Below, in pieces: positions 2,450 through 64,000 of a DNA stretch of 64,000 bases; positions within the stretch are counted from its first letter, which is position 1, and every line of letters begins with the position of its first letter. Below the pieces are notes generated by a model. It had not been told where the DNA came from and searched no databases. It saw only the letters and a list, made by a program, of their open reading frames with translations. Made by a program: the position numbers and the translations under genes. Location of the stretch: NCBI RefSeq assembly GCF_056712565.1, contig NZ_CM160072.1; one strand, 5' to 3'.

Positions 2450-3577
2450 ATGTCGTGCCCGGTTATTGAGCTGACACAACAGCTTATTCGCCGCCCTTCC
2501 CTGAGTCCTGATGACGCAGGATGCCAGGCTTTGTTGATTGAACGTTTGCAGGCGATCGGTTTTACCGTTGAACGCATGGACTTTGCCGATACGCAGAATT
2601 TTTGGGCATGGCGTGGGCAGGGTGAAACGTTAGCCTTTGCCGGGCATACCGACGTGGTGCCGCCTGGCGACGCCGACCGTTGGATCAATCCGCCGTTTGA
2701 ACCAACCATTCGTGACGGCATGTTATTCGGGCGCGGTGCGGCAGATATGAAAGGCTCGCTGGCGGCGATGGTGGTAGCTGCAGAACGTTTTGTCGCACAA
2801 CATCCCAACCATACGGGGCGACTGGCATTTCTGATCACCTCTGATGAAGAAGCCAGTGCACACAATGGTACGGTAAAAGTCGTCGAAGCGTTAATGGCAC
2901 GTAATGAGCGTCTCGATTACTGCCTGGTTGGCGAACCGTCGAGTATCGAAGTGGTAGGTGATGTGGTGAAAAATGGTCGTCGCGGATCGTTAACCTGCAA
3001 CCTTACCATTCATGGCGTTCAGGGGCATGTTGCCTACCCACATCTGGCTGACAATCCGGTACATCGCGCAGCACCTTTCATTAATGAATTAGTGGCTATT
3101 GAGTGGGATCAGGGTAATGAATTCTTCCCGGCGACCAGTATGCAGATTGCCAATATTCAGGCGGGAACGGGCAGTAACAACGTTATTCCAGGTGAACTGT
3201 TTGTGCAGTTTAACTTCCGCTTTAGCACCGAACTGACGGATGAGATGATCAAAGCGCAGGTGCTTGCCCTGCTTGAAAAACATCAACTGCGCTATACGGT
3301 GGATTGGTGGCTTTCCGGGCAGCCATTTTTGACCGCGCGCGGTAAACTGGTGGATGCGGTCGTTAACGCGGTTGAGCACTATAATGAAATTAAACCGCAG
3401 CTACTGACCACAGGCGGAACGTCCGACGGGCGCTTTATTGCCCGCATGGGGGCGCAGGTGGTGGAACTCGGGCCGGTCAATGCCACGATTCATAAAATTA
3501 ATGAATGTGTGAACGCTGCCGACCTGCAGCTACTTGCCCGTATGTATCAACGTATCATGGAACAGCTCGTCGCCTGA
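2450..3577 (+). CDS. dapE: Succinyl-diaminopimelate desuccinylase
   Basis: 375-aa ORF, M20 peptidase family motifs, synteny. Confidence 0.95.
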
Positions 3578-18214: not shown

Positions 18215-19269
<1,055 letters not shown>

Positions 19270-27973: not shown

Positions 27974-27994
27974 CATTCATAGTGCAGGGTCAAA

Positions 27995-28009
27995 TCATTC
28001 CCACTCAAT
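27995..28009 (-). other. Displaced guaA 3' end (codons IEWE-stop) = prophage attachment core at junction
   Basis: TCATTCCCACTCAAT reverse-translates to ...I-E-W-E-stop then diverges into phage DNA; 9-bp inverted repeat CACTCAATT/AATTGAGTG at 28002-28038. Confidence 0.55.
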
Positions 28010-30416: not shown

Positions 30417-30445
30417 CCCGCAAAATATTGCGGGCTTTTTTTTAA
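30417..30445 (+). terminator. Plus-strand rho-independent terminator abutting tailspike stop
   Basis: CCCGCAAAATATTGCGGG followed by CTTTTTTTTT. Confidence 0.4.
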
Positions 30446-33400
30446 CGTTCTTCCAGAGACTGAATCCGCTCTTTTATCTTATCCATTTCTCTGCGCTGCC
30501 ATGCTGCCTCGATATAGAATAAGAGATCAGGTCTGACCCCCCATCTAGATCCTGCTGGCGTTATTTCAACGCGCTCAATGATGTCTTCTATTACCATCAC
30601 TGGATTATCATCCTCATCAACAATGATGCTCCCGTCATTATCAGTCAGCGGCATTTCCCTTTGGCCAGTAATGACGTCATCATATACTGCGGGATAATCG
30701 TCATAGCAAAGAAAGGCATAGCGGCATGTTGTGCTTTCTTCTTCCATGAGTCCGTGAGAAATAAGAACATCACGAAGTTGCTGCGCGATTACACCATGAT
30801 GTATCCTCGCCCCTTCTTCCCCCTTTATAGCGACAGCGTTCAGCCATTTATAAGCGATATACCTGACGTCACCCCAGGCATCCAGCAATGCTTCGTCAGG
30901 AGAGACCGGCTCTGTCTTTAATGTTCCGTCACTGGTAACCACAGGATTGGAGCCAAGATAAACTGTCGAGAACCTGTTTCCCGGACCACCAAGAGCATTT
31001 ACATTATCAAGATAAGGTTTAACATCTCCGTTCTCAAAAAGATGTTCGAGTGCGTTATATACCGCGCGACGTGGAGTACTGCTTCCGGAACCATGCAACG
31101 TTATCATTGCACCATCTGCTGAAGACGTTGTTTCACCTCCGCTAACGATTAATCTCTGAGCGGTAACATCATCAGACGGTACTTTCTTCGCAATAATGGC
31201 GTAATTACCCTCAAGTTTGACTTCCGCGCGAACTTGTCCTGATGTACCTGCATGGACAGTCAGTGACTGGACGGCAACATCATCTGTGAAATCAACGGGT
31301 ACAGGAACCGTCCTCACGCCTGACGTCGACATAAAAGTAGGAAGCGTTCTGTTAGGAGTGGCTCCGTAGACAAAATCCCTTGAAACAAATTCTTCCTGTT
31401 TAATTTTCACCCTGAAACAATACAAATCAGCCGGGTGACCATCGTGAACATAAGGATATTTTCTGTTGTTATCCCCTATGCTCCATGGGTTTAGAAAGTC
31501 TTCCCCACCGAAAATGTAGTACAGCCAGTTGTCTTTGATACAAACTGAACCAACACCAACCGCAGAGTTAACTATTCCGCCCTGATAAATCTGATCAGTA
31601 ACATTAACCCACTCTACATTATCCAGACTCCACTCATTGACGTTAACTCTGGTCATAAATGTTCTTGGATAATTTCCTGCATAACGGTTATCAGGTTCTC
31701 CTCCTTCCCACTCACCAAATGCGCGCTCACTGCCAAAAATAATCAGCTCATCGCCAACTTTGGCAAAAGGAAGGTTTGAGTGATGAACATTATTTGGGAA
31801 GCGAAGAGAATTCCATGATGTACCTAAATCAGAGCTTCTGTGCAATGAACTACCGGGTTGAGTACTTAATGTCCCCCTGGTCGTCAGATACAGAATGCCA
31901 TCATAATATTTTACACATGGCTCAGATGCATTCGCCTCATATTCTGCAGGTATGCGTCTGCGAACAAAGCTACCAGGAGAACCGAAAGCATCAGAGAAAT
32001 AGAGTATCCCAAGCTCGCGTGGACCAATATCACCATTATGGTAGCCAACAGCAAAACTGTTATCGCTAATCGTCGCAAAACTGTGAATCTCAGTAACAGG
32101 AGTGCTTCCGTCAACAAAAGAAGGAATAGTTCCAAGACTGGTTTTTCTCCATGGTGACGAGTGAAATGATGTACCAAAACTCCAGTATCTACCCTCGTTA
32201 TTCTGATCCACATCCTGAGTATTTTGCGTCGTAACTGTAAAAGTATTTTTATCAATAACAGTAGTCACCGTCATATTCCCGGTAACACCTGTAACACCAG
32301 AGTTTGAGAAGTTGACAAAATCACCAGCAAATAATCCGTGATCAGTAATGCGAATATAAGCGACTTGCTGATTTGCTGCTTTCGTTATACCACCATAAAC
32401 GCGAAGGCTGCGACTCATTGGGCGATCCCACAACTCTGCAACCTGCAGTTTATTTCCTCTCACGGTCCGCGTCTCAATTACAGCAAAAAGGCGATTTCTG
32501 ACAACCCCCATACTCATGCAGTGATAGTTAACTGTGGGATAGTTTTCATGTAAATCTGTAAGCCATTCCGGCGTTGTCCAGGTCTTCCCGTCATCTCCTG
32601 AGCGAACCCATGCAACATGGAGGTTATTTACACCATGGCGGTCTCCAGCCATAAAAGGCGCATAGATGACATTGTCATATACAAACGTTTTATCCTGCGT
32701 CCAGGCGTTGTACCACGGTGTATCTGTAATTTTAAATAACTCTCCCTGGATAAAATCTTCAGAAGCATAAAAAAGAGGCTGGCCCGGTATTCTCTCAAAT
32801 AAAAAACGAGCATTTTTAAATCGACTGACATCCGGAAGAGTTGATACTTTAAAAGTAAGCCCTAATCCGTCAATTTTATAACCTGGAGATGAGGCTTCAA
32901 GGCACGCGCTTATTGCAGTGGAATCGTCATTTATACCATCACCAACAGCTCCAAAATCTTTGGGGCTAATAGCATCACGCATTTTATCCTGGAACGTTCG
33001 GTACACAGCCCCAGAACCATACTGAATAAACCAACCAAAACCACCAACAACCCCGGCGATTGCAGCATCGACATAATTACGCATTGAGCGATTATTTACA
33101 GCGTCCTGCTCAAATGATGGATCTGCAAGGTTAGAAATTTTGTTTTGCTTTGCATCGTAATATTTTGCAAGCAAAGATGGTTTCATCAATGCACGTCTGA
33201 ACCACCCAAAACATTGCTGGATCAGCATCGTCAGGTAGTCAAAGGCATCTTCATGCACTTCGGGGAAAAATTTTCCCTGATTGCGAAGGTCTGTCTCCTG
33301 CACTACATCAAGCACACGATCTATCGTAATTCGCCATCCAGTAGCAAGCGGAGACGGAAGAACCACAGAACCGCCACTATAAGTGCCCGCCCCAGTTACC

Positions 33401-33561
33401 GTATAACCGGTATCCAGGACCAATTCTGTTACGTTCCCGTTCAGGTCAGACACCTGAACAACCAGGTCTGATTTTCTGAAAATTCGAAAAGTATACGGAA
33501 ACGATGTCGTAACGCCGTTACCGGTGTATTCGTTGTGGTCAACTTCGGTTGAGACCGTCAT
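30442..33561 (-). CDS. Tailspike protein with Asp-box (BNR) beta-propeller-type central domain
   Basis: 1039 aa; conserved phage tail-fibre N-terminal domain; two SxDxGxTW motifs (SGDDGKTW, SSDLGTSW); RBS GGAG. Confidence 0.8.
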   Translation of the reverse strand: MTVSTEVDHNEYTGNGVTTSFPYTFRIFRKSDLVVQVSDLNGNVTELVLDTGYTVTGAGTYSGGSVVLPSPLATGWRITIDRVLDVVQETDLRNQGKFFPEVHEDAFDYLTMLIQQCFGWFRRALMKPSLLAKYYDAKQNKISNLADPSFEQDAVNNRSMRNYVDAAIAGVVGGFGWFIQYGSGAVYRTFQDKMRDAISPKDFGAVGDGINDDSTAISACLEASSPGYKIDGLGLTFKVSTLPDVSRFKNARFLFERIPGQPLFYASEDFIQGELFKITDTPWYNAWTQDKTFVYDNVIYAPFMAGDRHGVNNLHVAWVRSGDDGKTWTTPEWLTDLHENYPTVNYHCMSMGVVRNRLFAVIETRTVRGNKLQVAELWDRPMSRSLRVYGGITKAANQQVAYIRITDHGLFAGDFVNFSNSGVTGVTGNMTVTTVIDKNTFTVTTQNTQDVDQNNEGRYWSFGTSFHSSPWRKTSLGTIPSFVDGSTPVTEIHSFATISDNSFAVGYHNGDIGPRELGILYFSDAFGSPGSFVRRRIPAEYEANASEPCVKYYDGILYLTTRGTLSTQPGSSLHRSSDLGTSWNSLRFPNNVHHSNLPFAKVGDELIIFGSERAFGEWEGGEPDNRYAGNYPRTFMTRVNVNEWSLDNVEWVNVTDQIYQGGIVNSAVGVGSVCIKDNWLYYIFGGEDFLNPWSIGDNNRKYPYVHDGHPADLYCFRVKIKQEEFVSRDFVYGATPNRTLPTFMSTSGVRTVPVPVDFTDDVAVQSLTVHAGTSGQVRAEVKLEGNYAIIAKKVPSDDVTAQRLIVSGGETTSSADGAMITLHGSGSSTPRRAVYNALEHLFENGDVKPYLDNVNALGGPGNRFSTVYLGSNPVVTSDGTLKTEPVSPDEALLDAWGDVRYIAYKWLNAVAIKGEEGARIHHGVIAQQLRDVLISHGLMEEESTTCRYAFLCYDDYPAVYDDVITGQREMPLTDNDGSIIVDEDDNPVMVIEDIIERVEITPAGSRWGVRPDLLFYIEAAWQRREMDKIKERIQSLEER

Positions 33562-33665: not shown

Positions 33666-33680
33666 TTACCTTTCGGGTAA
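33666..33680. promoter_or_regulatory. Operator-like palindrome TTACC-N5-GGTAA
   Basis: TTACCTTTCGGGTAA; member of a family of 10 perfect sites in the prophage. Confidence 0.45.
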
Positions 33681-33717: not shown

Positions 33718-33737
33718 TACTGTATAAACATACAGTT
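33718..33737. promoter_or_regulatory. LexA (SOS) box
   Basis: TACTGTATAAACATACAGTT = CTGT-N8-ACAG with TA-rich spacer, 20 bp upstream of ATG 33757. Confidence 0.6.
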
Positions 33738-33756: not shown

Positions 33757-34014
33757 ATGCAGCAGTATCACTATCCACTGGAAGACGGATTTACCGAAAG
33801 GATTCACACGCCGGGAGGCGTCAGATCACTGGTGGAGGGATCGCTCTTGATGAAATTACTCCGGGATCTCGATAAGGATGGATTTAATGTCGATGGCCCA
33901 CTTGCCGAACTGACTGCACTGATTAACTACGTCACCAGCTCACAGATGTCTATGCGGGATCTGCAAACACATCTCGACTATTGTGCCGAACAATTACGAA
34001 AACAAACCAGATAA
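33757..34014 (+). CDS. Small antirepressor-like protein (85 aa), paralog of the Ant C-terminal domain
   Basis: MQQYHYPLEDGF...; aligns with C-terminus of the BRO-N protein; RBS GGAGAAG; track start 33634 is an extension. Confidence 0.55.
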   Translation: MQQYHYPLEDGFTERIHTPGGVRSLVEGSLLMKLLRDLDKDGFNVDGPLAELTALINYVTSSQMSMRDLQTHLDYCAEQLRKQTR

Positions 34015-34017
34015 GGT

Positions 34018-34046
34018 TTGCAATTACCAAATGGAGTGCTTATATT
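34018..34046 (+). promoter_or_regulatory. Sigma70-like promoter for antirepressor gene
   Basis: TTGCAA, 17-bp spacer, TATATT; abuts operator 34046-34060. Confidence 0.45.
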
Positions 34047-34060
34047 TACCTTTGCGGTAA
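34046..34060. promoter_or_regulatory. Operator-like palindrome TTACC-N5-GGTAA
   Basis: TTACCTTTGCGGTAA overlapping -10/+1 of the antirepressor promoter. Confidence 0.45.
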
Positions 34061-34326
34061 ATTTACATCGCACTCCTCTTGTGCCATAGTAATCGGGCAC
34101 TGGCAAAATCCAGTGCCGGGATTGGCGTCCCGAGTTACTACAGAGGCACATATGCCGCATAAGCGGTTTTTTTATGTGTAAAGCGCACCTATTCTATGGT
34201 GGGCTGTGTGGGGGCACCGAAAGGTGCGCCGGGTCCTTTGTAGCCGGTTACGCCAACCCTGCACAGTTCACCACCAACCGATTGGCGTCGGTAGTGGTGA
34301 TTAACCTAACTACAAAGGTGATCGCC

Positions 34327-35019
34327 ATGAATACCAAACCTTCCATCTTTTCCTTTGAGTCATCCTGCCAGATCCGTATGTTCATGATTGACGGAGAACC
34401 TTGGTTTGTCACCAAAGATGTGTGCAATGCTTTGAATATTGATGTTACACAAGCGAGAAAACTTGATAAAAAAGGCTGGAACAAAAAGGGGCTGTATTCA
34501 ATACAGACCCCTGGTGGAATACAAGAACTATCCATCGTTTCAGAATCAGGTCTCTACATCCTTATTCTGCGTTGCAAAGAGGCAATGACTGAGGGAACGA
34601 GAGCATTCAGATTTCTTGAATGGGTTACAGGCGAAGTACTTCCTCAGATCCGCCGCACCGGAAGCTACATTAAAAACTCGCTCCCGCAGGAAGAACGCAT
34701 AAAGATGGTTGCCGACCAGGTAGCCAACGCCACGGCGTCAGCAGTAATGCAGGCGATGAAGATAGAGAACAAAACCTACAGCGCCCCACTGAAGCCCGGC
34801 TACCGCAGCCTGATTCATTCGCCGTCTGGTGTTCTCGGCCTGACGGAGAACTCACTGCTGATGAATCTGCTGAACCAGTTACAGGAAGACGGGCACGACG
34901 TATCGGGCGCGGCGGCGGAGCTGACCACCATGTTCTGCTACATCGTCGGTGTGAGCAAGTGCCTGCGTGATATCCAGACGCACGCGGAGTACATCAACGA
35001 CAAGGCTGGGTTCTTCTGA
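34327..35019 (+). CDS. Antirepressor, BRO-N N-terminal domain plus Ant-type C-terminal domain
   Basis: GEPWFVTKDVCNALNI...GLYILILRCKEA...EWVTGEVLPQIRRTG BRO-N signature; ATG 34327 with RBS AAGGTG. Confidence 0.75.
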   Translation: MNTKPSIFSFESSCQIRMFMIDGEPWFVTKDVCNALNIDVTQARKLDKKGWNKKGLYSIQTPGGIQELSIVSESGLYILILRCKEAMTEGTRAFRFLEWVTGEVLPQIRRTGSYIKNSLPQEERIKMVADQVANATASAVMQAMKIENKTYSAPLKPGYRSLIHSPSGVLGLTENSLLMNLLNQLQEDGHDVSGAAAELTTMFCYIVGVSKCLRDIQTHAEYINDKAGFF

Positions 35020-35085: not shown

Positions 35086-35100
35086 TTACCTTACGGGTAA
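35086..35100. promoter_or_regulatory. Operator-like palindrome TTACC-N5-GGTAA
   Basis: TTACCTTACGGGTAA, 60 bp upstream of ATG 35160. Confidence 0.45.
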
Positions 35101-35159: not shown

Positions 35160-35792
35160 ATGAAAACAAATACAACAAGAAAAGCGATGCCATACATTAT
35201 CCCAGAAGCAGATTTCGACAGAAAACTGAACATGTCTGAGAAGAACACTAGTCACACCGAAAGCTACTTAGCGAAAGGTGTGGTTGATTTCGTTCTTCCG
35301 GGATTCACAACACCTTATGGTTATCGCCTTGTAAAATCTTGTAATGGCGATCATTACAGAATGATTACTACCAGCGATACTCCAGAAACGGTGTATGCGG
35401 TTAAGTTAATCTTTCGGGAAGATATCGTCGAAGCTAAAAGAACATGTACGCAGATCATGGTATGGCGTACGCCTAATGTTATTCATGACCGTGCTGTTCA
35501 TGGTTTGCCTCAGATTTTTTTTCAGTTCTTCCTAGAGCAATATGCGATCGTTGTATCTGATGAGCAACAAACAATCGATGGGAGAAGATTCTGGGAAAGA
35601 ATGATTTCTTGGGCTATAAACACCCCGGGATATAATGTATACGTTTCAGATGGCTCTGAAGAAGATAGACCTCTTAGCTTCATGACATCATGGGATGATT
35701 TCTATAGCCAGTGGGCTGATTTCTGTTGGGGCAGTGATAAAGATGTGCATACCCACAGACTACTGGTTATAAGCAAAGATAAACTGCATTAA
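35160..35792 (+). CDS. Hypothetical cytoplasmic protein (210 aa), moron
   Basis: Own operator, RBS GGGAGGA and terminator; Trp-rich C-terminus; no family recognised. Confidence 0.55.
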   Translation: MKTNTTRKAMPYIIPEADFDRKLNMSEKNTSHTESYLAKGVVDFVLPGFTTPYGYRLVKSCNGDHYRMITTSDTPETVYAVKLIFREDIVEAKRTCTQIMVWRTPNVIHDRAVHGLPQIFFQFFLEQYAIVVSDEQQTIDGRRFWERMISWAINTPGYNVYVSDGSEEDRPLSFMTSWDDFYSQWADFCWGSDKDVHTHRLLVISKDKLH

Positions 35793-48446: not shown

Positions 48447-48497
48447 CTTCTTTCTCCATTAGTGGGCCTGTTGCGGCCCACAGGTTAATAACAGGCG

Positions 48498-52458: not shown

Positions 52459-52495
52459 TTGACATTTAACGCGTTAATTATTACCTTTCAGGTAA
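52459..52495. promoter_or_regulatory. TTGACA -35-like hexamer plus operator-like palindrome (52481-52495)
   Basis: TTGACA at 52459-52464; TTACCTTTCAGGTAA at 52481-52495. Confidence 0.4.
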
Positions 52496-52816: not shown

Positions 52817-52893
52817 GTGGCATTAGCTCAGTTGGACAGAGCAACCGCCTTCTAAGCGGTTGGTCGCAGGTTCGAATCCTGCATGCCACGCCA
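52817..52893 (+). tRNA. Phage-encoded tRNA-Arg, anticodon UCU
   Basis: Cloverleaf by hand: acceptor GTGGCAT/ATGCCAC, D-arm GCTC/GAGC, anticodon stem ACCGC/GCGGT, loop CTTCTAA, T-arm GCAGG-TTCGAAT-CCTGC, CCA end. Confidence 0.85.
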
Positions 52894-53091
52894 GAATCAC
52901 GCCTAAGGACCGTGATGCCAGAAGTTCCAGGTGCTTGGCGGTGATGGTTTCCCTTGAAGGACTATCACCGCCCTTTTTACAGCAGGACGCCATTGCGATG
53001 ACTTCATGCTGTAAACCAGTACAGCCACGGAAGGCATAACTCATTGCTTCCAGTTCGCCCGGTTCGCCGGGCATTTTTTAAAGGTGAGATT

Positions 53092-53463
53092 ATGAACGAC
53101 CAGCAAATCGAAAAAGAAATCGTTGAGAAAGGCAAAACGGCACCGCGCGTTACGCCAGACCATATCGAAGGCATTATTGCTCAGGAGGCATATTTCACAG
53201 CAGAAGATGGTGCCTTTGGCAAAGCCATAAAAGCGAAACATACTGGCGGAGAGGTAAACTACCAGCCGCACGAATCACTTTCTCTGCTGACGTTCTGCGT
53301 CCTGGTGCTGCGCAACGGCTTCACCGTCACCGGAGAGAGCGCCTGTGCAAGCCCGGAAAACTTTGATGCGGAAATTGGTCGGGAGATTGCCCGGCAGAAT
53401 GCTGTAAACAAAATCTGGATGCTCGAAGGTTACTTGCTGAAGCAGAAGTTAAGCGAGCAATAA
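53092..53463 (+). CDS. Hypothetical protein (123 aa) co-oriented with tRNA; moron
   Basis: ATG 53092 with RBS AAAGGTGAG; plus-strand island in minus-strand operon; family not confidently recognised. Confidence 0.55.
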   Translation: MNDQQIEKEIVEKGKTAPRVTPDHIEGIIAQEAYFTAEDGAFGKAIKAKHTGGEVNYQPHESLSLLTFCVLVLRNGFTVTGESACASPENFDAEIGREIARQNAVNKIWMLEGYLLKQKLSEQ

Positions 53464-53553: not shown

Positions 53554-55029
53554 TTAAGCATAAGGGTCATAATCCGTTATGGCCCTTCCCTGCTGGCTTT
53601 GCTGTCCAGGTATATTTATGCGTTTCGAGACCGGGAAAGCAAACGTCAGCAGTAGCGCATCGCCTTTACCCGGCGAACGCCCAAGCCGCTCCTTGATATC
53701 TTCCTTCGGTTCGATAACGATTTTACCGTCCACACGAACTTTGTACTCTGCCGCCGACAGGTCGTCTGCAGTTTCCTGGTCATCCAGCATGCCGCCGAGC
53801 CTCAGCCATGTCTTGCATGAGTTGAACATCTCCCCACGCTTGTTGAGCATCTGCGGGTCAGTAGACGCGCCACCGAACGGAACAAGTTGCCATGTACGTC
53901 CCCAGCCATCACCGATTGACTTCAAACCGGTTCCGTAACCGAAGTCGATGAACACCGCGTCAGCCTGATACTGGTCTTCAAAGTCAGCGATACGCTTCGC
54001 CATAATCAGATCGTCGGTAGTCTTGTTGCCAGTCCACAGCACCTTACTGTGTAGCCCCTGCCGCAGGTATATCACAGCGTCATCAACGCCGGAGTATGCC
54101 GGGTCAACGCCGATTATCACCGGAGCATGTGCAACCTGCGCAGCGGTTACCACCCGTTTCATTGCCTCGTCAGTAAGACCGGTAGGGATAAACTGCAATT
54201 CAGATGCATCAGGGAATATGCCACGCACACGGATTTTAACGAAGTCGCTGTCTTCCCCGTAGTCATCAACCCATTTCTGCAACTGCTGTTTGTTGGTACC
54301 TTCCACCGTCCGACTGTCAATCTGCGCAGTTTTCCAGCGGTGTTTATACTTGCGGAAACATTCACGGAAACGTCCGGTATTACGTGTAGGGTTTCCGAAC
54401 GCCACCCAAATAATCTCAGTGTCTTCGTCCGTAAGCGCACCCTCGGCAACTTCCCACACCAGATCCGCAATGTTCGACGCTTCATCAAACACCACGATGA
54501 TGCGTTTGCGCTCGTTGTGTAGTCCGGCGAATGCCTCGGTGTTGTGCTCAGACCAGGGTATTGCGTCAGCCCGCCACCGCTTGTCGTGCCCTAGGTCATT
54601 GCTGTACATCGCGGTAGCGGTACAGGTAAACCAGTCTTTCGTGATAGCAAGGTTCGACCACTTGATAATTTCCGGCCAGGTCTTCGTTCGTAGCTGGTTG
54701 TCGGTGTTGGCGGTCACCACGACCTTACAATCCTCGCAAGTGGACATGCCCCAGTTGATCAGCATTGAGATGAATGCGGATTTACCAATACCGTGACCAG
54801 AAGCGCGTGCCAGCATAAGCGGCTGATAGCGCGTCTCTGGATTCTGCAGGTGATCACGTATCTCTCGGAACGCATCAGCCTGCCACTGACGTGGGCCGGT
54901 GGCATGTGCCAGTTCAGTCCCCTCTTCCCCCCATGGGAACGCATAGAGGGCATAGCCAAGCGGATCGTGAGTGAACCCTGCAATATCCTCGATTAACTGC
55001 TCTTCAGGAGATAACGCTGTATCTGTCAC
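53554..55029 (-). CDS. Terminase large subunit
   Basis: 491 aa; Walker A-like ASGHGIGKS; C-terminal nuclease-like region; follows small subunit with overlap. Confidence 0.85.
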   Translation of the reverse strand: MTDTALSPEEQLIEDIAGFTHDPLGYALYAFPWGEEGTELAHATGPRQWQADAFREIRDHLQNPETRYQPLMLARASGHGIGKSAFISMLINWGMSTCEDCKVVVTANTDNQLRTKTWPEIIKWSNLAITKDWFTCTATAMYSNDLGHDKRWRADAIPWSEHNTEAFAGLHNERKRIIVVFDEASNIADLVWEVAEGALTDEDTEIIWVAFGNPTRNTGRFRECFRKYKHRWKTAQIDSRTVEGTNKQQLQKWVDDYGEDSDFVKIRVRGIFPDASELQFIPTGLTDEAMKRVVTAAQVAHAPVIIGVDPAYSGVDDAVIYLRQGLHSKVLWTGNKTTDDLIMAKRIADFEDQYQADAVFIDFGYGTGLKSIGDGWGRTWQLVPFGGASTDPQMLNKRGEMFNSCKTWLRLGGMLDDQETADDLSAAEYKVRVDGKIVIEPKEDIKERLGRSPGKGDALLLTFAFPVSKRINIPGQQSQQGRAITDYDPYA

Positions 55030-55622
55030 TGATTGCCATCCTGACGTTCTTTCAGTCTCTTCCTGGCTGCCGCTATGCGATCAGCAATTGTCACATTCAC
55101 ATTAACATCCAGGCGTTCTTTGAATGCGTTGACGTCGACGTGCTTACCAATCAGTTCGAGGTTCTTCACCTTGTCAGGCCATTTAATTTTTTTGAGGATT
55201 GTCTCTATCGAATCCTCGTTCATGTTCATGATGGTCGATGACAGATCAAAGCCACTAAGCGTAGTGCGCCAGATTTTCGGCCACTCGCGGATTGGCTTAA
55301 GGCTCCCATCGTCGTTGAGGATGTCGATCACGTCCATCTGGTCGATCTCCACCAGGCGCATGAGAACGTAATCAGCACTGACGCGCATTCGTTTGTTGCG
55401 CTCCTCCATCAACTCGGCAATCCGTTTTTGAATGCGTTCATCGCGCATCATGACACTGGCTTTAACTGCCGCTGTATTTGGGGAGAATCCTGCGTTAATC
55501 GCTGCCTGAGTCTGGTTTTCAGGCGTTTTGATGTATGACTGGCAATAAGCCTCCTGCATTGCTGTTAGTGGCTTAAATTGCGTTGATTTGCGTTTATAGG
55601 TTTTAGGTTCAGCAGGCATCAT
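55026..55622 (-). CDS. Terminase small subunit
   Basis: ATG 55622/55619 preferred; track start 55700 is a TTG extension over a terminator and operator. Confidence 0.55.
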   Translation of the reverse strand: MMPAEPKTYKRKSTQFKPLTAMQEAYCQSYIKTPENQTQAAINAGFSPNTAAVKASVMMRDERIQKRIAELMEERNKRMRVSADYVLMRLVEIDQMDVIDILNDDGSLKPIREWPKIWRTTLSGFDLSSTIMNMNEDSIETILKKIKWPDKVKNLELIGKHVDVNAFKERLDVNVNVTIADRIAAARKRLKERQDGNQ

Positions 55623-55639
55623 AACCACCGTGGTAATAG

Positions 55640-55654
55640 TTACCGTTGTGGTAA
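55640..55654. promoter_or_regulatory. Operator-like palindrome TTACC-N5-GGTAA upstream of packaging operon
   Basis: TTACCGTTGTGGTAA, 18 bp upstream of small-terminase ATG. Confidence 0.45.
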
Positions 55655-55663
55655 TAGTACCAT

Positions 55664-55691
55664 GCAAAATAAAGCCGCCATAGTTGGCGGC
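55664..55691 (-). terminator. Terminator separating early/middle operon from packaging operon
   Basis: Minus strand GCCGCCA-acta-TGGCGGC then TTTATTTTG. Confidence 0.5.
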
Positions 55692-55696
55692 AGTAT

Positions 55697-55909
55697 TCAA
55701 AGTCCATCAAATTCATCGTAAAAACTCTCGTCAAGATACCCTTCCCATTTACCGCGAATGAAAATTACATCCTCGCCGCAAGGGTGCTGACTGTCGATAA
55801 CTATATCCCTCCTGGCGCAACCATACTTATGCATGAGAAATTTAACCTCTTTCGGAAAATTTGCTGAGTTATCTCTCATATCTTCAAGGTCGTAGCGTAT
55901 TTTTGGCAT
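55697..55909 (-). CDS. Hypothetical protein (70 aa)
   Basis: ATG 55909 with RBS AAGGTG; track start 55930 is a GTG inside the palindrome. Confidence 0.35.
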   Translation of the reverse strand: MPKIRYDLEDMRDNSANFPKEVKFLMHKYGCARRDIVIDSQHPCGEDVIFIRGKWEGYLDESFYDEFDGL

Positions 55910-58556: not shown

Positions 58557-58571
58557 TTACCTCTAAGGTAA
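58557..58571. promoter_or_regulatory. Operator-like palindrome TTACC-N5-GGTAA
   Basis: TTACCTCTAAGGTAA immediately upstream of ATG 58553. Confidence 0.45.
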
Positions 58572-58618: not shown

Positions 58619-58633
58619 TTACCTATTGGGTAA
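58619..58633. promoter_or_regulatory. Operator-like palindrome TTACC-N5-GGTAA
   Basis: TTACCTATTGGGTAA in P / nuclease-like spacer. Confidence 0.45.
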
Positions 58634-60484: not shown

Positions 60485-60564
60485 GGTAAGCCCTGTTATT
60501 AGTATTGGGATTACGGTTATTTTGTGCTGACACAAAAAAAAGATCAACCAGATTTGGTTTTTTA

Positions 60565-60579
60565 TTACCTTTGAGGTAC
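60565..60579. promoter_or_regulatory. Imperfect operator-like site
   Basis: TTACCTTTGAGGTAC (one mismatch). Confidence 0.35.
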
Positions 60580-60594
60580 GAATAGATATGAAAA

Positions 60595-60612
60595 GACCGC
60601 CGGGTGGCGGTC
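60595..60612 (-). terminator. tR1-like terminator after cro-like gene
   Basis: Minus strand GACCGCC-accc-GGCGGTC then TTTTCAT. Confidence 0.5.
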
Positions 60613-60634
60613 TACAGAGGGTTGTAGCTGGATA

Positions 60635-60865
60635 TCATGAGTAGAAGAAGTATGCCAGTTCTGCTTTTGAGCGCAGCCATTGTCTTGTTTTACAGGCTTT
60701 AAAAAGCCCATTCATCAATACTTTACCTGGCATTTTTCGCTTACCTGTTAAGTGAGTCTGGATATAGTGACTCGTCGTTCCGGCTTCCTGTGCGAAGGCT
60801 TCACGCTCATCCGGAGTAAGTGCAAGCCAGTGCTTTTTGAAATCGAAATGTCCGTTATCGCTCAT
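60635..60865 (-). CDS. Cro-like HTH regulator (76 aa)
   Basis: Divergent from cI-like gene across the operator cluster; HTH LTPDEREAFAQEAGTTSHYIQ. Confidence 0.55.
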   Translation of the reverse strand: MSDNGHFDFKKHWLALTPDEREAFAQEAGTTSHYIQTHLTGKRKMPGKVLMNGLFKACKTRQWLRSKAELAYFFYS

Positions 60866-60901
60866 AGCTATTGCCTGATATTTATTTCAGATAATAAATA
60901 T

Positions 60902-60964
60902 TCACCCATAAGGTAACAAAAATCAAGGATAGTTACCTATGAGGTGCATTTACCTGTTGGGTAA
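60902..60964. promoter_or_regulatory. OR-like tripartite operator region between cro-like and cI-like genes
   Basis: TCACCCATAAGGTAA (60902), TTACCTATGAGGTGC (60933), TTACCTGTTGGGTAA (60950). Confidence 0.5.
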
Positions 60965-61019
60965 TATTGCTTTAAATTGAATCATCTACTGATTCATATA
61001 TGAGGCGATTTTCCAGAAA

Positions 61020-61604
61020 ATGAAAAGTATCCAGGACGTCCGCAGGCAAAATCTCAACGACTTGATCGACCGTGAATTCAATGGTGTTCAGACGCGGATG
61101 GCAGAAAAACTTGGAACTCAGGCAAATCTGGTAAACCGCTGGGCTCTTGGCAAGAAGGTTATCGGCGACCAGGTTGCGCGAAAAATTGAAGCTGCCGCCA
61201 ATAAACCCCGTAACTGGCTTGATATCGATCGCTCGCTTTCTCAGGAAGGTTTTCAGCCTGTCGGCCCAAGCGACATTGGTCAGCTGGCGGCTCACAACCT
61301 GGAACGCTGGATGAGCGAAAGCCGCGACCTTTCAACACAGGGAAAACTTCACCGCGCATCCGGCGTCGCCCAGGTGACAATCAGCCGCCTGTTAAACAAT
61401 GAGGTCAGCGTTTCCATTTCCACCCTGGAGAATGTTGCATCCGCATTCGGGCGTCACGGCTATGAATTACTGATTCACCCGCACGACCCTGCGACTATCA
61501 ACTATGACCGCTCGCGCTACGCATTGTTACCCGAAACAGAGAAGGCAAAGATCGAAAGTTACATTGAATTTGTCATCAGCCAGAACGAAAAAAACAAACA
61601 ATAA
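61020..61604 (+). CDS. CI-like repressor, HTH type, no recognisable LexA-type autocleavage domain
   Basis: 194 aa, two HTH-like segments, no Ala-Gly/Ser-Lys S24 motifs; followed by terminator. Confidence 0.65.
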   Translation: MKSIQDVRRQNLNDLIDREFNGVQTRMAEKLGTQANLVNRWALGKKVIGDQVARKIEAAANKPRNWLDIDRSLSQEGFQPVGPSDIGQLAAHNLERWMSESRDLSTQGKLHRASGVAQVTISRLLNNEVSVSISTLENVASAFGRHGYELLIHPHDPATINYDRSRYALLPETEKAKIESYIEFVISQNEKNKQ

Positions 61605-61625
61605 AATCATATTTTTCAGTAAGTA

Positions 61626-61648
61626 AGCCGCCTCATGGCGGCTTTTTT
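61626..61648 (+). terminator. Rho-independent terminator after cI-like gene
   Basis: AGCCGCC-tcatg-GCGGCT then TTTTTT. Confidence 0.6.
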
Positions 61649-61661
61649 ATTGCCAGCAAGA

Positions 61662-61738
61662 TTACCTTATGGGTAATTTTTTTAACTCATATCTATTGAC
61701 ATCAAACCAGATACGCATAATCATTACCTCAACGGTAA
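61662..61738 (+). promoter_or_regulatory. pL-like promoter flanked by two operator palindromes
   Basis: TTACCTTATGGGTAA (61662-61676), TTGACA 61696-61701, ATAATC -10-like, TTACCTCAACGGTAA (61724-61738). Confidence 0.5.
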
Positions 61739-61757
61739 CAGACCGAGGTAACAAATT

Positions 61758-61910
61758 ATGCAGTGGAAAATCATCAACGGTTGGTACTGCGTTACTGCAT
61801 GCGGATTCATGAGCTGGAAGTTCCGCACCTTACAGGAAGGCATTAAGTGGGCTTTCGTCAGCAAAGAAGCTCGCGATGTGGCCAACGATAACGAGATATG
61901 GGAGGGCTGA
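61758..61910 (+). CDS. Small hypothetical protein (50 aa), first gene of leftward-type early operon
   Basis: ATG 61758 with RBS GAGGT; absent from ORF track (below 60 aa). Confidence 0.35.
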   Translation: MQWKIINGWYCVTACGFMSWKFRTLQEGIKWAFVSKEARDVANDNEIWEG

Positions 61911-61912
61911 TA

Positions 61913-62212
61913 ATGAACGTTAATCAGCAGAAAAATCTTCAAAAAATCATGCAGGCATTCGACAAGGACTACCACCTGTCAGAACAGCTATATGACCGAC
62001 AAGTTGAACTGATTGAGAGCATCCGACTTCATCAACTGTCATCAACTTTCGACGTTGTAACAGGCAAAGGCGTTCGTCAGGAAGTACTGGAGGCTGCTAA
62101 AGACAGCCCTGAGTTCGAAGAACTGATGGATGCCTATCGGCGAGAGGCAATGGCAATTATCGCCCGCTGGGATCTGGCGGATCAGCTTGATGGACAGAAG
62201 GACGCGGCATGA
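61913..62212 (+). CDS. Hypothetical protein (99 aa)
   Basis: ATG 61913 with RBS GGAGGG; coupled to downstream exonuclease gene. Confidence 0.45.
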   Translation: MNVNQQKNLQKIMQAFDKDYHLSEQLYDRQVELIESIRLHQLSSTFDVVTGKGVRQEVLEAAKDSPEFEELMDAYRREAMAIIARWDLADQLDGQKDAA

Positions 62213-63030
62213 AACCGGGAATTTATTTCGGCATCAGCAACGAAGACTACCACGCAGGTGACGGCGTGAGTAAGTCGCAACTGGACATGGTTGCCAAGAA
62301 TCCGGCGCTTCTTAAATGGGTTCAGGCAGCACCAGAAGACGAAGAGAAAAAGTCTGCATTGGATATGGGAACCGCATTGCACTGCCTGCTTCTGGAACCT
62401 GGAGAATTCGACAAACGCTTCATCGTGTCACCGAAATTCGATCGTCGGACAAAACAAGGTAAAGCTGACGAAGAAGCATTTCTTCGTGATGTGGCGGATA
62501 TGGGTATTACGGTACTTGATGTCGAGCAGTGGCGAAAACTTGAGCTCATGCGTGATAGCGCAATGGCTCATCCGGCGGCACGCTGGATGTTGGAAGCACC
62601 TGGTTACTGCGAAGCATCAATGTACTGGAACGATGAAGAGACGGGTGAGTTGTGCCGAATTCGTCCAGACAAATGGCTGAACGAGCACAACGTGATCGTC
62701 GACGTGAAAAAGGTTGCAGATATGGACCGTTTTGCACGCCACATCGAGGAATTCCGCTACCACGTGCAGGACGCAATGTACCGCGAAGGCGCAACGAGGG
62801 TTACTGGTCAACCGCATGGTTTTTTCTTTCTTGCCGTGAGCGAAAGCATTGATTGTGGTCGGTATCCGGTACGCGTGTTCGAGTTGGATGCGCCGGATGT
62901 CGATGCCGGGCACGCTCTGTTCCGCCGGGATCTGAATACCTATCACGAATGCCGCATCAACGATGAGTGGGGCGGAGTGGAAATTATTAAACGCCCTGAC
63001 TGGGCACGTAAACAGGATATGTACGTATGA
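62209..63030 (+). CDS. PD-(D/E)XK exonuclease (RecE-C-terminal/Exo VIII-like)
   Basis: 273 aa; RPD...IVDVKK nuclease motif; coupled to annealase gene. Confidence 0.6.
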   Translation: MKPGIYFGISNEDYHAGDGVSKSQLDMVAKNPALLKWVQAAPEDEEKKSALDMGTALHCLLLEPGEFDKRFIVSPKFDRRTKQGKADEEAFLRDVADMGITVLDVEQWRKLELMRDSAMAHPAARWMLEAPGYCEASMYWNDEETGELCRIRPDKWLNEHNVIVDVKKVADMDRFARHIEEFRYHVQDAMYREGATRVTGQPHGFFFLAVSESIDCGRYPVRVFELDAPDVDAGHALFRRDLNTYHECRINDEWGGVEIIKRPDWARKQDMYV

Positions 63031-63908
63031 GCAATGATATCGCAATCACATCACAACCAGGCGCAACTGTAGGTACTGCTGCGGCAATCTTCAGCCCGGA
63101 GGGCATGAATCAACTGGTGCGTTTCGCGGAGTTGATGTCACAAAGCAAAGCGACTGTACCGAAACATCTTGAAGGCAAACCTGCCGATTGTCTGGCGGTG
63201 ACCATGCAGGCGGCACAGTGGGGAATGAACCCTTTCGCCGTGGCGCAGAAAACGCATGTGGTAAACGGAACGTTAGGCTACGAAGCACAGTTGGTAAACG
63301 CGGTCGTATCCTCTTCCAGCCTGCTGGCGACACGCCTGAATTATCGCTGGAGCGGTGACTGGTCGAATGTTAACGGCAAAACAGATAAATCACCGAATCT
63401 GACGGTAACTGTGTCAGCAGTTCTTAAAGGAGAAGCAGAACCCCGTGAGCTTACCATCAGTATGGCGCAAGCCGGAGTGCGTAACTCTCCATTGTGGGAA
63501 CAGGATCCGCGCCAGCAGCTTGCCTATCTTTGCACGAAACGATGGGCTCGCCTGCACGCTCCTGATGTGCTTCTCGGTGTTTACACCCCTGACGAATTAC
63601 AGGAAACGGCACCGCGCGTTGAGCGAGACATTACTCCGCAAACAACTACTGCTGCGGGAATGAACAGTCTGATCAACGCTAAACCAGTGAAAAAGCCTGA
63701 TGAGCAAACTCGTAAAGCGGATAGCCGTGATCCAGAAGAAATGCTGATGGCCTTTACCAGCGCAGCGATGAATTACAGCACTGTCTCCGAACTGGATAAG
63801 GCTTACAAATACATTGCACAAAAACTTTCAGATGATGACGAACTGCTGGCAAAAGCCACCGACGTTTACAGCGTTCGTCGGGAAGAATTAAACGAAACAT
63901 CTATGTAA
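63027..63908 (+). CDS. Red-beta/Bet-family single-strand annealing protein
   Basis: QWGMNPF and ERDITPQ segments resemble recalled lambda Bet (GLNPW, ERDITPV). Confidence 0.6.
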   Translation: MSNDIAITSQPGATVGTAAAIFSPEGMNQLVRFAELMSQSKATVPKHLEGKPADCLAVTMQAAQWGMNPFAVAQKTHVVNGTLGYEAQLVNAVVSSSSLLATRLNYRWSGDWSNVNGKTDKSPNLTVTVSAVLKGEAEPRELTISMAQAGVRNSPLWEQDPRQQLAYLCTKRWARLHAPDVLLGVYTPDELQETAPRVERDITPQTTTAAGMNSLINAKPVKKPDEQTRKADSRDPEEMLMAFTSAAMNYSTVSELDKAYKYIAQKLSDDDELLAKATDVYSVRREELNETSM

Positions 63909-63957: not shown

Positions 63958-64000
63958 ATGAAAGGTGCATTAGGTAAGAAGGAACTCCTGGCGGTGGTGC
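63958..64000 (+). CDS. Start of next early gene (truncated by window end)
   Basis: ATG 63958 (MKGALGKKELLAVV) with RBS AGAGAGG. Confidence 0.3.
   Translation, partial: MKGALGKKELLAVV

Follow-up and report, generated by a model that had tools for sequence, protein, structure and literature searches.

The rep locus and its prophage

The gene rep occupies positions 61020-61604 on the plus strand of the 64-kb window (the whole stretch of DNA that was analyzed) and encodes a protein of 194 amino acids from an ATG start. It lies in a prophage of the phiV10/epsilon15 type, genus Uetakevirus, that is integrated at guaA. The left prophage end is marked by the attL core attgagtgggaatgatt, which matches the ZX5 attP/attB core, sited at the guaA 3′ end (PMC9782041). 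The right end is located beyond window position 64000; a few kb past the window's right edge, a near-identical E. coli genome carries the integrase gene and guaA. Within the window, the prophage part accounts for 36 kb and the host part for 28 kb. In E. coli strain 04-00955 the rep region is 100% identical, and the tailspike and several early genes differ from those of the window. The left prophage end and the features surrounding rep are as follows:

27993..28009, minus strand: attL core attgagtgggaatgatt, left prophage end (core sequence from PMC9782041)
60635..60865, minus strand: gene in the Cro/cII position, 76 aa, divergent from rep (phrog_35, E = 5.6e-13; homolog of phiV10 p41 and epsilon15 gp39)
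61020..61604, plus strand: rep, immunity repressor (Pfam, PDB matches, and alignment to SPC32H Rep)
61625..61644, plus strand: terminator-like hairpin directly 3′ of rep (annotated as a terminator in phiV10)
61696-61724, plus strand: rightward promoter-like site TTGACA-17-AATCAT, for the operon of p39, p38, exonuclease, and RecT

The 76-aa gene is the first of a leftward early operon that includes replication genes; DnaT-like and lambda-P-like replication genes come after it. Downstream of rep, the terminator is followed by two small genes, a PD-(D/E)XK nuclease gene, and the gene for RecT. No peptidase-family match was detected among the neighboring genes scanned on either side of rep.

rep is clearly a real gene, because the region around it (60500-62000) is present at a coverage of at least 80% in 555 of 5426 complete E. 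coli genomes and because its product is 99.5% identical to annotated repressors of several Uetakeviruses, among them phiV10 p40 and vB_EcoP_ZX5 ORF21. The phiV10 p40 annotation reads [quoted passage not shown] and the RefSeq (PGAP) name in matching E. coli genomes is only "helix-turn-helix domain-containing protein." When ZX5 ORF21 was overexpressed, free phage disappeared and transcripts of lysis genes fell by 99.97 to 99.99% (PMC9782041).

Domain content of Rep

In a Pfam hmmscan, Rep matched HTH-type families only, and Peptidase_S24 gave no match at E ≤ 1. HTH_3 matched in two stretches (E = 1.2e-9, best at aa 106-147), HTH_26 and HTH_31 matched as well, and aa 21-61 resembled the Cro-type YdaS_toxin model at a score below its curated cutoff (21 versus 30 bits). 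Rep also matched transcriptional regulator/repressor families in PHROGs (phrog_8, E = 5.5e-27). The sequence-only reading of this locus had described an HTH N terminus and a second HTH-like segment and had proposed alignment against S24 profiles as a check. The two HTH_3 stretches bear out that description, the second segment corresponding to the middle dimerization domain of the characterized homolog, and the profile search returned the result that the reading anticipated. A script found neither an Ala-Gly nor a Cys-Gly dipeptide anywhere in the 194 residues, in agreement with the claim that the Ala-Gly cleavage site is absent. The claim that Rep has no Ser/Lys dyad in a LexA-like domain also holds, as deduced from the missing S24 domain; Ser and Lys residues themselves occur (16 and 11, respectively). 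The case for the missing S24 domain accordingly derives from full-length homology to a solved non-S24 structure and not from residue counts.

That homology was found in a phmmer search of all PDB sequences, in which Rep 1-190 aligned to residues 2-197 of 5D50_A, named "Repressor" (E = 4.1e-42), and the C-terminal half of Rep matched 5D4Z_A, a Rep(92-198) fragment (E = 4.2e-20). The 5D50 repressor sequence is the product of the rep gene of Salmonella phage SPC32H. Rep is 41.8% identical to SPC32H Rep over the full length, and a global alignment gave 41% for the whole protein, with 54% for the N-terminal, 34% for the middle, and 43% for the C-terminal domain. A six-member Rep alignment revealed conserved motifs in all three domain regions. 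By alignment to SPC32H Rep, the following domains are predicted:

About aa 1-70, then a linker: N-terminal HTH DNA-binding domain
About aa 89-152: HTH-like middle dimerization domain
About aa 153-194: C-terminal tetramerization and Ant-binding domain

SPC32H Rep is described in the citing literature (PMC9986798) as an N-terminal DNA-binding domain (DBD), a middle dimerization domain (MDD), and a CAD, the last of which tetramerizes Rep and binds the antirepressor. Judged from this alignment, the second HTH-like segment of Rep is probably the counterpart of the MDD and not a second DNA-reading head. Because the C-terminal half of Rep aligns to the dimerization and tetramerization domains, there is no room for a protease domain. 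The check for a cryptic S24 domain consisted of the Pfam search and the sequence homology to 5D50 and 5D4Z. An AlphaFold2 model of Rep, built from a 6-sequence alignment, was all-helical and of low confidence (mean pLDDT = 45.7, pTM = 0.31); it is too unreliable to add independent support.

Antirepressor genes and operator palindromes

At the opposite end of the prophage part of the window lies a gene for a small antirepressor, followed by a second, BRO-N-type antirepressor gene. The features of this segment are as follows:

33666..33680, unstranded: predicted Rep operator, exact, between ant and the divergent tailspike gene (the syntenic epsilon15 site is annotated "protein_bind repressor")
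33720..33735, unstranded: LexA (SOS) box CTGTATAAACATACAG, perfect, ending 21 nt 5′ of the ant start codon
33757..34014, plus strand: ant, antirepressor, 85 aa (SPC32H Ant ortholog; phrog_450)
34046..34060, unstranded: predicted Rep operator, exact, 36 nt 5′ of isrK, adjoining the promoter-like site TTTACA-17-CATAGT (34062-34090)
34097..34173, plus strand: isrK-family sRNA element with its own terminator (Rfam, 74.2 bits; gathering score 50)
34192..34278, plus strand: C4 antisense RNA family element (Rfam, 79.5 bits; gathering score 45)
34327..35019, plus strand: BRO-N antirepressor with a C-terminal Ant-like domain (Bro-N Pfam, E = 1.8e-13; phrog_450)
35086..35100, unstranded: predicted operator, exact, between the BRO-N gene and the next ORF (35160-35792)

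In the PDB search, the product of the 85-aa ORF matched 5D50_E, named "Anti-repressor protein" (E = 5.3e-45). It is 85.5% identical to SPC32H Ant and 97.6% identical to its phiV10 and ZX5 counterparts, and no Pfam family matched it above threshold. Among phage records, Rep was found in 37 and Ant in 35, essentially the same set. The motif CTGT-N8-ACAG occurs three times in the 64-kb window, one copy being the box directly upstream of ant. The copy at 48468, with a GC-rich center and a position inside the block of late structural genes, was taken as a chance occurrence. A further copy, at 53009, is situated upstream of a moron ORF; SPC32H does not have this copy.

Conservation of the box was assessed by aligning the sequences 5′ of ant in seven Uetakeviruses (the window, phiV10, SPC32H, epsilon15, Tyrion, BUCT554, and Klebsiella phage BUCT711), whose hosts are Escherichia, Salmonella, Enterobacter, and Klebsiella. 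The position of the LexA box was kept in all seven, and the full CTGT-N8-ACAG in six, with one degenerate half-site (ATGT) in BUCT711. The Rep operator upstream of the box aligned across the seven phages as well. The sequence-only reading had placed a LexA-box antirepressor elsewhere in the prophage, and the box at 33720-33735 together with the 85-aa ORF at 33757-34014 is that element.

The BRO-N protein resembles SPC32H Ant over aa 149-225 (5D50_E, E = 9e-14), a segment 45% identical to the 85-aa Ant; both proteins match phrog_450. Relative to ZX5 ORF4, the protein is 81% identical, and the C-terminal 107 aligned residues are identical. Overexpression of this ZX5 BRO-N antirepressor reduced the prophage (lysogen) titer about 1000-fold in a study in which the BRO-N protein was the antirepressor assayed (PMC9782041). 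An Ant-like domain is present in the BRO-N proteins of the window and ZX5 and was not detected in that of phiV10 at E ≤ 1e-5 (one place only).

The isrK and C4 elements sit between ant and the BRO-N gene. The arrangement of operator, isrK/C4, and BRO-N is common to phiV10, ZX5, and Tyrion, and the isrK/C4 BRO-N module is absent from SPC32H and epsilon15. In the window, the frame from ATG 34174 runs without a stop into the BRO-N ORF; ZX5 carries an annotated separate 37-aa "ash family" ORF at this position. In Gifsy-1, an antirepressor gene downstream of isrK is expressed from the isrK promoter, and its translation is RNA gated (PMC4825925). By analogy, the BRO-N module could provide a Rep-controlled, RNA-gated reinforcement of derepression or an independent trigger for it. 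The Ant-like domain on the BRO-N protein and the setting of isrK/C4 and operator are only mildly new points.

The palindrome TTACC-N5-GGTAA is present in 10 exact copies in the window, all of them within the 36 kb of prophage; the 28-kb host segment has none. With up to one mismatch allowed, 16 sites were found, versus 1.1 expected by chance. Nine of the 10 exact copies are intergenic, and the tenth, at 55640, is also intergenic if terS starts at the in-frame ATG 55622 and not at TTG 55700. Beyond the three listed above, the sites, all unstranded, are as follows:

52481..52495: predicted operator, exact, 5′ of the portal operon (syntenic with SPC32H 3175 and with epsilon15 2931, the latter annotated)
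55622-55636 (1 mismatch) and 55640-55654 (exact): predicted operator pair directly 5′ of the probable terS start, ATG 55622 (minus strand)
58557-58571 and 58619-58633: two predicted operators, exact, between replication gene P and a DUF1064 gene
60565..60579: operator-like palindrome, 1 mismatch, between the cro-like gene and the p42 homolog
60902-60916: predicted operator, rep/cro region, 1 mismatch, overlapping a leftward promoter-like site (60919-60891)
60933-60947: predicted operator, rep/cro region, 2 mismatches
60950-60964: predicted operator, rep/cro region, exact TTACC-N5-GGTAA
61662-61676 and 61724-61738: two predicted operators, exact, flanking the TTGACA-17-AATCAT site (syntenic in SPC32H and epsilon15)

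SPC32H has the same syntenic set of palindromes. Its rep/cro intergenic region aligns with that of the window around three TTACC-N5-GGTAA palindromes, and the terS operator has a syntenic counterpart at 12-26 in both SPC32H and epsilon15. In the epsilon15 GenBank record, these sites carry the label "protein_bind: repressor, lysogeny," and the repressor entry refers to 5d50_A; the operator feature is therefore already known. A consensus scan revealed no convincing sigma-70 promoter for ant or rep on the right strand at either gene.

Proposed induction mechanism, alternatives, and known systems

Domain content, the lack of an S24 match, the orthology of Rep and Ant to a crystallized pair, and the conserved LexA box and operators were observed directly in these comparisons. 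By analogy with SPC32H, we consider it highly probable that rep encodes the master lysogeny repressor, that this repressor does not undergo S24 autocleavage, and that it is most likely disabled by LexA-controlled Ant. In a lysogen, Rep tetramers would occupy TTACC-N5-GGTAA sites both at the divergent early promoters next to rep and at several further intergenic promoters, and host LexA would hold the SOS box of the ant promoter, far from rep. DNA damage would trigger LexA self-cleavage and thereby production of the 85-aa Ant. Ant tetramers would then bind the C-terminal domains of Rep, splitting the Rep tetramer into dimers that leave the DNA, whereupon lytic promoters would fire. Because Rep has no LexA/cI-type S24 domain, RecA* could not make it self-cleave.

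An indirect SOS relay of this kind (LexA cleavage, then Ant, then Rep disassembly), as the sequence-only reading had proposed, is supported for this prophage by the close homology of Rep and Ant to the characterized SPC32H pair and by the conserved LexA box. Literature citing the SPC32H work describes the corresponding steps. In this system, SOS and LexA self-cleavage lead to production of an antirepressor that inhibits the repressor by protein-protein contact (PMC7380047), and the Ant tetramer binds a pair of Rep dimers and disrupts the Rep tetramer (PMC9638917). SPC32H Rep binds DNA as a tetramer, according to the citing literature. For the E. coli phages, some direct support comes from the ZX5 ORF21 overexpression and from a DNA-damaging microcin, which induced prophages of the phiV10 species 21- and 47-fold (bioRxiv 10.64898/2026.05.26.727859). 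For the Rep studied here, non-cleavage, binding by Ant, and tetramer disassembly are what we infer from this analogy. SPC32H Rep reportedly stays uncleaved during SOS, and a one-base change in the LexA site is said to make Ant constitutive in the sibling phage SPC32N (both points attributed to Kim & Ryu 2013). As a counterpoint, the only Rep with demonstrated non-cleavage and Ant binding is about 42% identical to the one studied here, and 34% in the middle domain.

Two other accounts of the repressor itself appear far less probable. That the ORF is an HTH regulator and immunity is set by another gene would fit the bare PGAP name; however, the ORF is placed as cI would be, operator palindromes separate it from a divergent cro-like gene, its SPC32H homolog is named rep, and the 99.5% identical ZX5 ORF21 abolished free phage when overexpressed, so that we give this account almost no credence. 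It is also very improbable that proteolysis inactivates Rep after all, be it self-cleavage at a cryptic site or the action of a dedicated protease, with the antirepressor as an accessory. There is no S24 match and no AG or CG dipeptide, the C-terminal half aligns fully to Rep(92-198) with its dimerization and tetramerization domains and leaves no protease room, and no peptidase family was matched in the scanned genes flanking rep; nothing positive was found for proteolysis, and on its side stands only the 42% identity to SPC32H Rep.

The choice of inducer is a separate matter. SPC32H and epsilon15 have the same Rep/Ant family without the isrK/C4 module, the LexA box with the small Ant is the element kept in 7/7 genomes, phiV10-type prophages respond to DNA damage, and an Ant-like domain is missing at E ≤ 1e-5 from the BRO-N protein of phiV10 (one place only). 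It is therefore unlikely that the main inducer is the BRO-N/Ant-like fusion gated by isrK and C4 in the manner of P1 immI or Gifsy-1 isrK-orf45-anrP, in place of the LexA-controlled Ant, with SOS as one input among several or a minor one, even though part of the fusion is Ant-like (5D50_E match at E = 9e-14; 45% identical to the small Ant), the 81% identical ZX5 ORF4 lowered the lysogen titer about 1000-fold on overexpression, and isrK and C4 lie directly 5′ at above-gathering scores and are kept in phiV10, ZX5, and Tyrion. The operator beside the ant promoter and the second antirepressor suggest that the circuit is more complex than a simple LexA-Ant-Rep relay. Less likely than not, though conceivable, is for the E. 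coli/Enterobacter branch a two-tiered switch combined with heterologous Ant cross-induction. The LexA-gated 85-aa Ant would start derepression, and the BRO-N-fused Rep-binding module, held behind the Rep operator and isrK/C4, would be released next, either amplifying derepression in a feed-forward manner or triggering it independently of SOS. In addition, Ant, being far more conserved than Rep (85% versus 42%), could from one prophage cross-induce heterologous Uetakevirus prophages.

The LexA-Ant-Rep system described here is a correct rediscovery of a known repressor system, because (i) Rep is 99.5% identical to the annotated, partly tested phiV10 p40 and ZX5 ORF21; (ii) the mechanism was established structurally in a congeneric phage; and (iii) the epsilon15 record already cross-references 5D50. 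Annotation of the two-HTH repressor in phiV10-type phages dates back to the genome record of phiV10. This prophage type is found in about 10% of complete E. coli genomes. Induction of phiV10-type prophages should depend on LexA cleavage and Ant, not on repressor cleavage, which affects the reading of induction by antibiotics and bacteriocins and the engineering of phiV10-based reporter phages.

Among the closest described counterparts is the Rep/Ant lytic switch of SPC32H, reportedly the subject of Kim & Ryu 2013 (J Virol) and Kim et al. 2016 (PNAS), with structures 5D50 and 5D4Z in the PDB. The two phages share the genus Uetakevirus, gene positions, full-length Rep homology (E = 4e-42), an Ant of 85.5% identity, the LexA box site at ant, and TTACC-N5-GGTAA palindromes at syntenic positions. 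They differ in that Rep is about 42% identical, the host is Salmonella and here E. coli, and SPC32H has no isrK/C4-preceded BRO-N antirepressor with a second Ant-like domain. With phiV10 (p40, p24, and p23) and ZX5 (ORF21 and ORF4), the prophage shares Rep (99.5%), Ant (97.6%), guaA integration, and the att core; phiV10 p23 is annotated as "putative anti-immunity protein." The tailspike of the window differs from that of phiV10 and is longer, exonuclease and RecT are split where a RecET fusion is annotated in phiV10, and the C-terminal Ant-like domain found in the window and in ZX5 is absent from the phiV10 BRO-N protein.

More distant systems share parts of this design. The small antirepressor of the SPC32H phage is reportedly structurally distinct from those of Sipho- and Myoviridae (Kim & Ryu 2013). 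The logic of a non-cleavable repressor and a LexA-repressed small antirepressor recurs in 186 (Tum) and in Gifsy/Fels-2 (Lemire et al. 2011; PMC7380047). With 186 Tum and Gifsy the likeness is functional only, an analogy, as the 85-aa Ant has no Pfam family above threshold. P1 immI (c4-icd-ant) and Gifsy-1 isrK-orf45-anrP resemble the second module in that isrK/C4 matches precede a BRO-N antirepressor gene; here, however, the C-terminal domain of the antirepressor is Ant-like and presumably Rep-specific, and the putative isrK promoter adjoins a predicted Rep operator. The S24 repressors of the lambda cI/LexA type share with Rep the master-repressor role, an N-terminal HTH, a divergent cro-like gene, and SOS as the signal. 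Rep differs from them in having no S24 domain and no Ala-Gly or Cys-Gly, in its other C-terminal architecture, and, by homology, in being inactivated presumably through reversible sequestration and not cleavage. The locus thus fails to show any testable S24-repressor feature and displays every testable feature of the SPC32H Rep/Ant family.

Rep operator palindromes, terS start and rep expression

Exact matches to the Rep operator palindrome TTACC-N5-GGTAA occur 10 times in the window, all 10 within the prophage and essentially all intergenic; some of them precede ant, terS or the portal operon. SPC32H shares these sites, as does epsilon15, where they are annotated as repressor-binding sites. 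The exact 15-bp palindromes start at the following positions.

33666, 34046, 35086, 52481, 55640, 58557, 58619, 60950, 61662, 61724

55026-55700, minus strand: terS ORF, with the TTG at 55700 taken as its start both here and by RefSeq

Two operator-like palindromes fall within the 5′ extension of the TTG-started terS. The true start is probably the in-frame ATG at 55622, from which terS would be 198 aa long (197 aa in SPC32H).

No obvious Shine-Dalgarno sequence was found 5′ of the rep ATG (window 61000-61022), and the SPC32H rep ATG likewise has none; a consensus scan detected no sigma-70 promoter for rep. Translation of rep may be leaderless, or rep may be expressed from a weak promoter, for which lambda cI transcribed from PRM offers a parallel.

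A second LexA-like box, recombination genes and tailspike

52817-52893: phage-borne tRNA-Arg(tct), adjoining the moron ORF
53009-53024: second LexA-like box, CTGTAAACCAGTACAG, ~70 nt upstream of the moron ORF
53092-53463, plus strand: moron ORF, 123 aa, phrog_322 (function unknown)
62209-63908, plus strand: separate, overlapping genes for a 273-aa PD-(D/E)XK nuclease and a 293-aa RecT
30442-33561, minus strand: tailspike, 1039 aa

At the place in SPC32H corresponding to the second box, no CTGT-N8-ACAG match was detected. Where the window carries two recombination genes, the phiV10 record annotates one RecET fusion, 1761 nt long. The window's tailspike is unlike that of either phiV10 (2628 nt) or E. 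coli 04-00955 (2232 nt), which suggests that the prophage's O-antigen specificity is different from theirs. Apart from this, the window's early region near rep matches both genomes at 98-100% identity.

isrK/C4 elements and the BRO-N antirepressor

34097-34173: isrK, Rfam match, in the interval from ant to the BRO-N gene
34174-34326, plus strand: 51-codon reading frame, starting directly after the isrK terminator
34192-34278: C4 antisense RNA, Rfam match, also between ant and the BRO-N gene
34327-35019, plus strand: BRO-N "anti-repressor"

The C-terminal domain of the BRO-N protein is homologous to the small antirepressor Ant (45% identity; E = 9e-14 against PDB 5D50_E), and a putative Rep-binding module is therefore encoded in two copies, one free and the other fused. 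The phiV10 BRO-N protein, in contrast, lacks this domain, and the ZX5 paper (PMC9782041) notes a Bro-N domain alone for that phage's antirepressor.

An operator palindrome precedes isrK, with 36-37 nt between the two, and the order ant, operator, isrK, C4, BRO-N is kept in phiV10, ZX5 and Enterobacter phage Tyrion (isrK-C4 region at 18642-18827, 2841-3026 and 738-923 in the relatives' sequences L001, L007 and L009, respectively). The 51-codon frame has no stop and continues in frame into the BRO-N ORF; ZX5 has a separate 37-aa "ash family" ORF annotated there. This frame may correspond to orf45 of Gifsy-1; the isrK/C4 arrangement ahead of the BRO-N gene resembles both isrK-orf45-anrP of Gifsy-1 and immI of P1.
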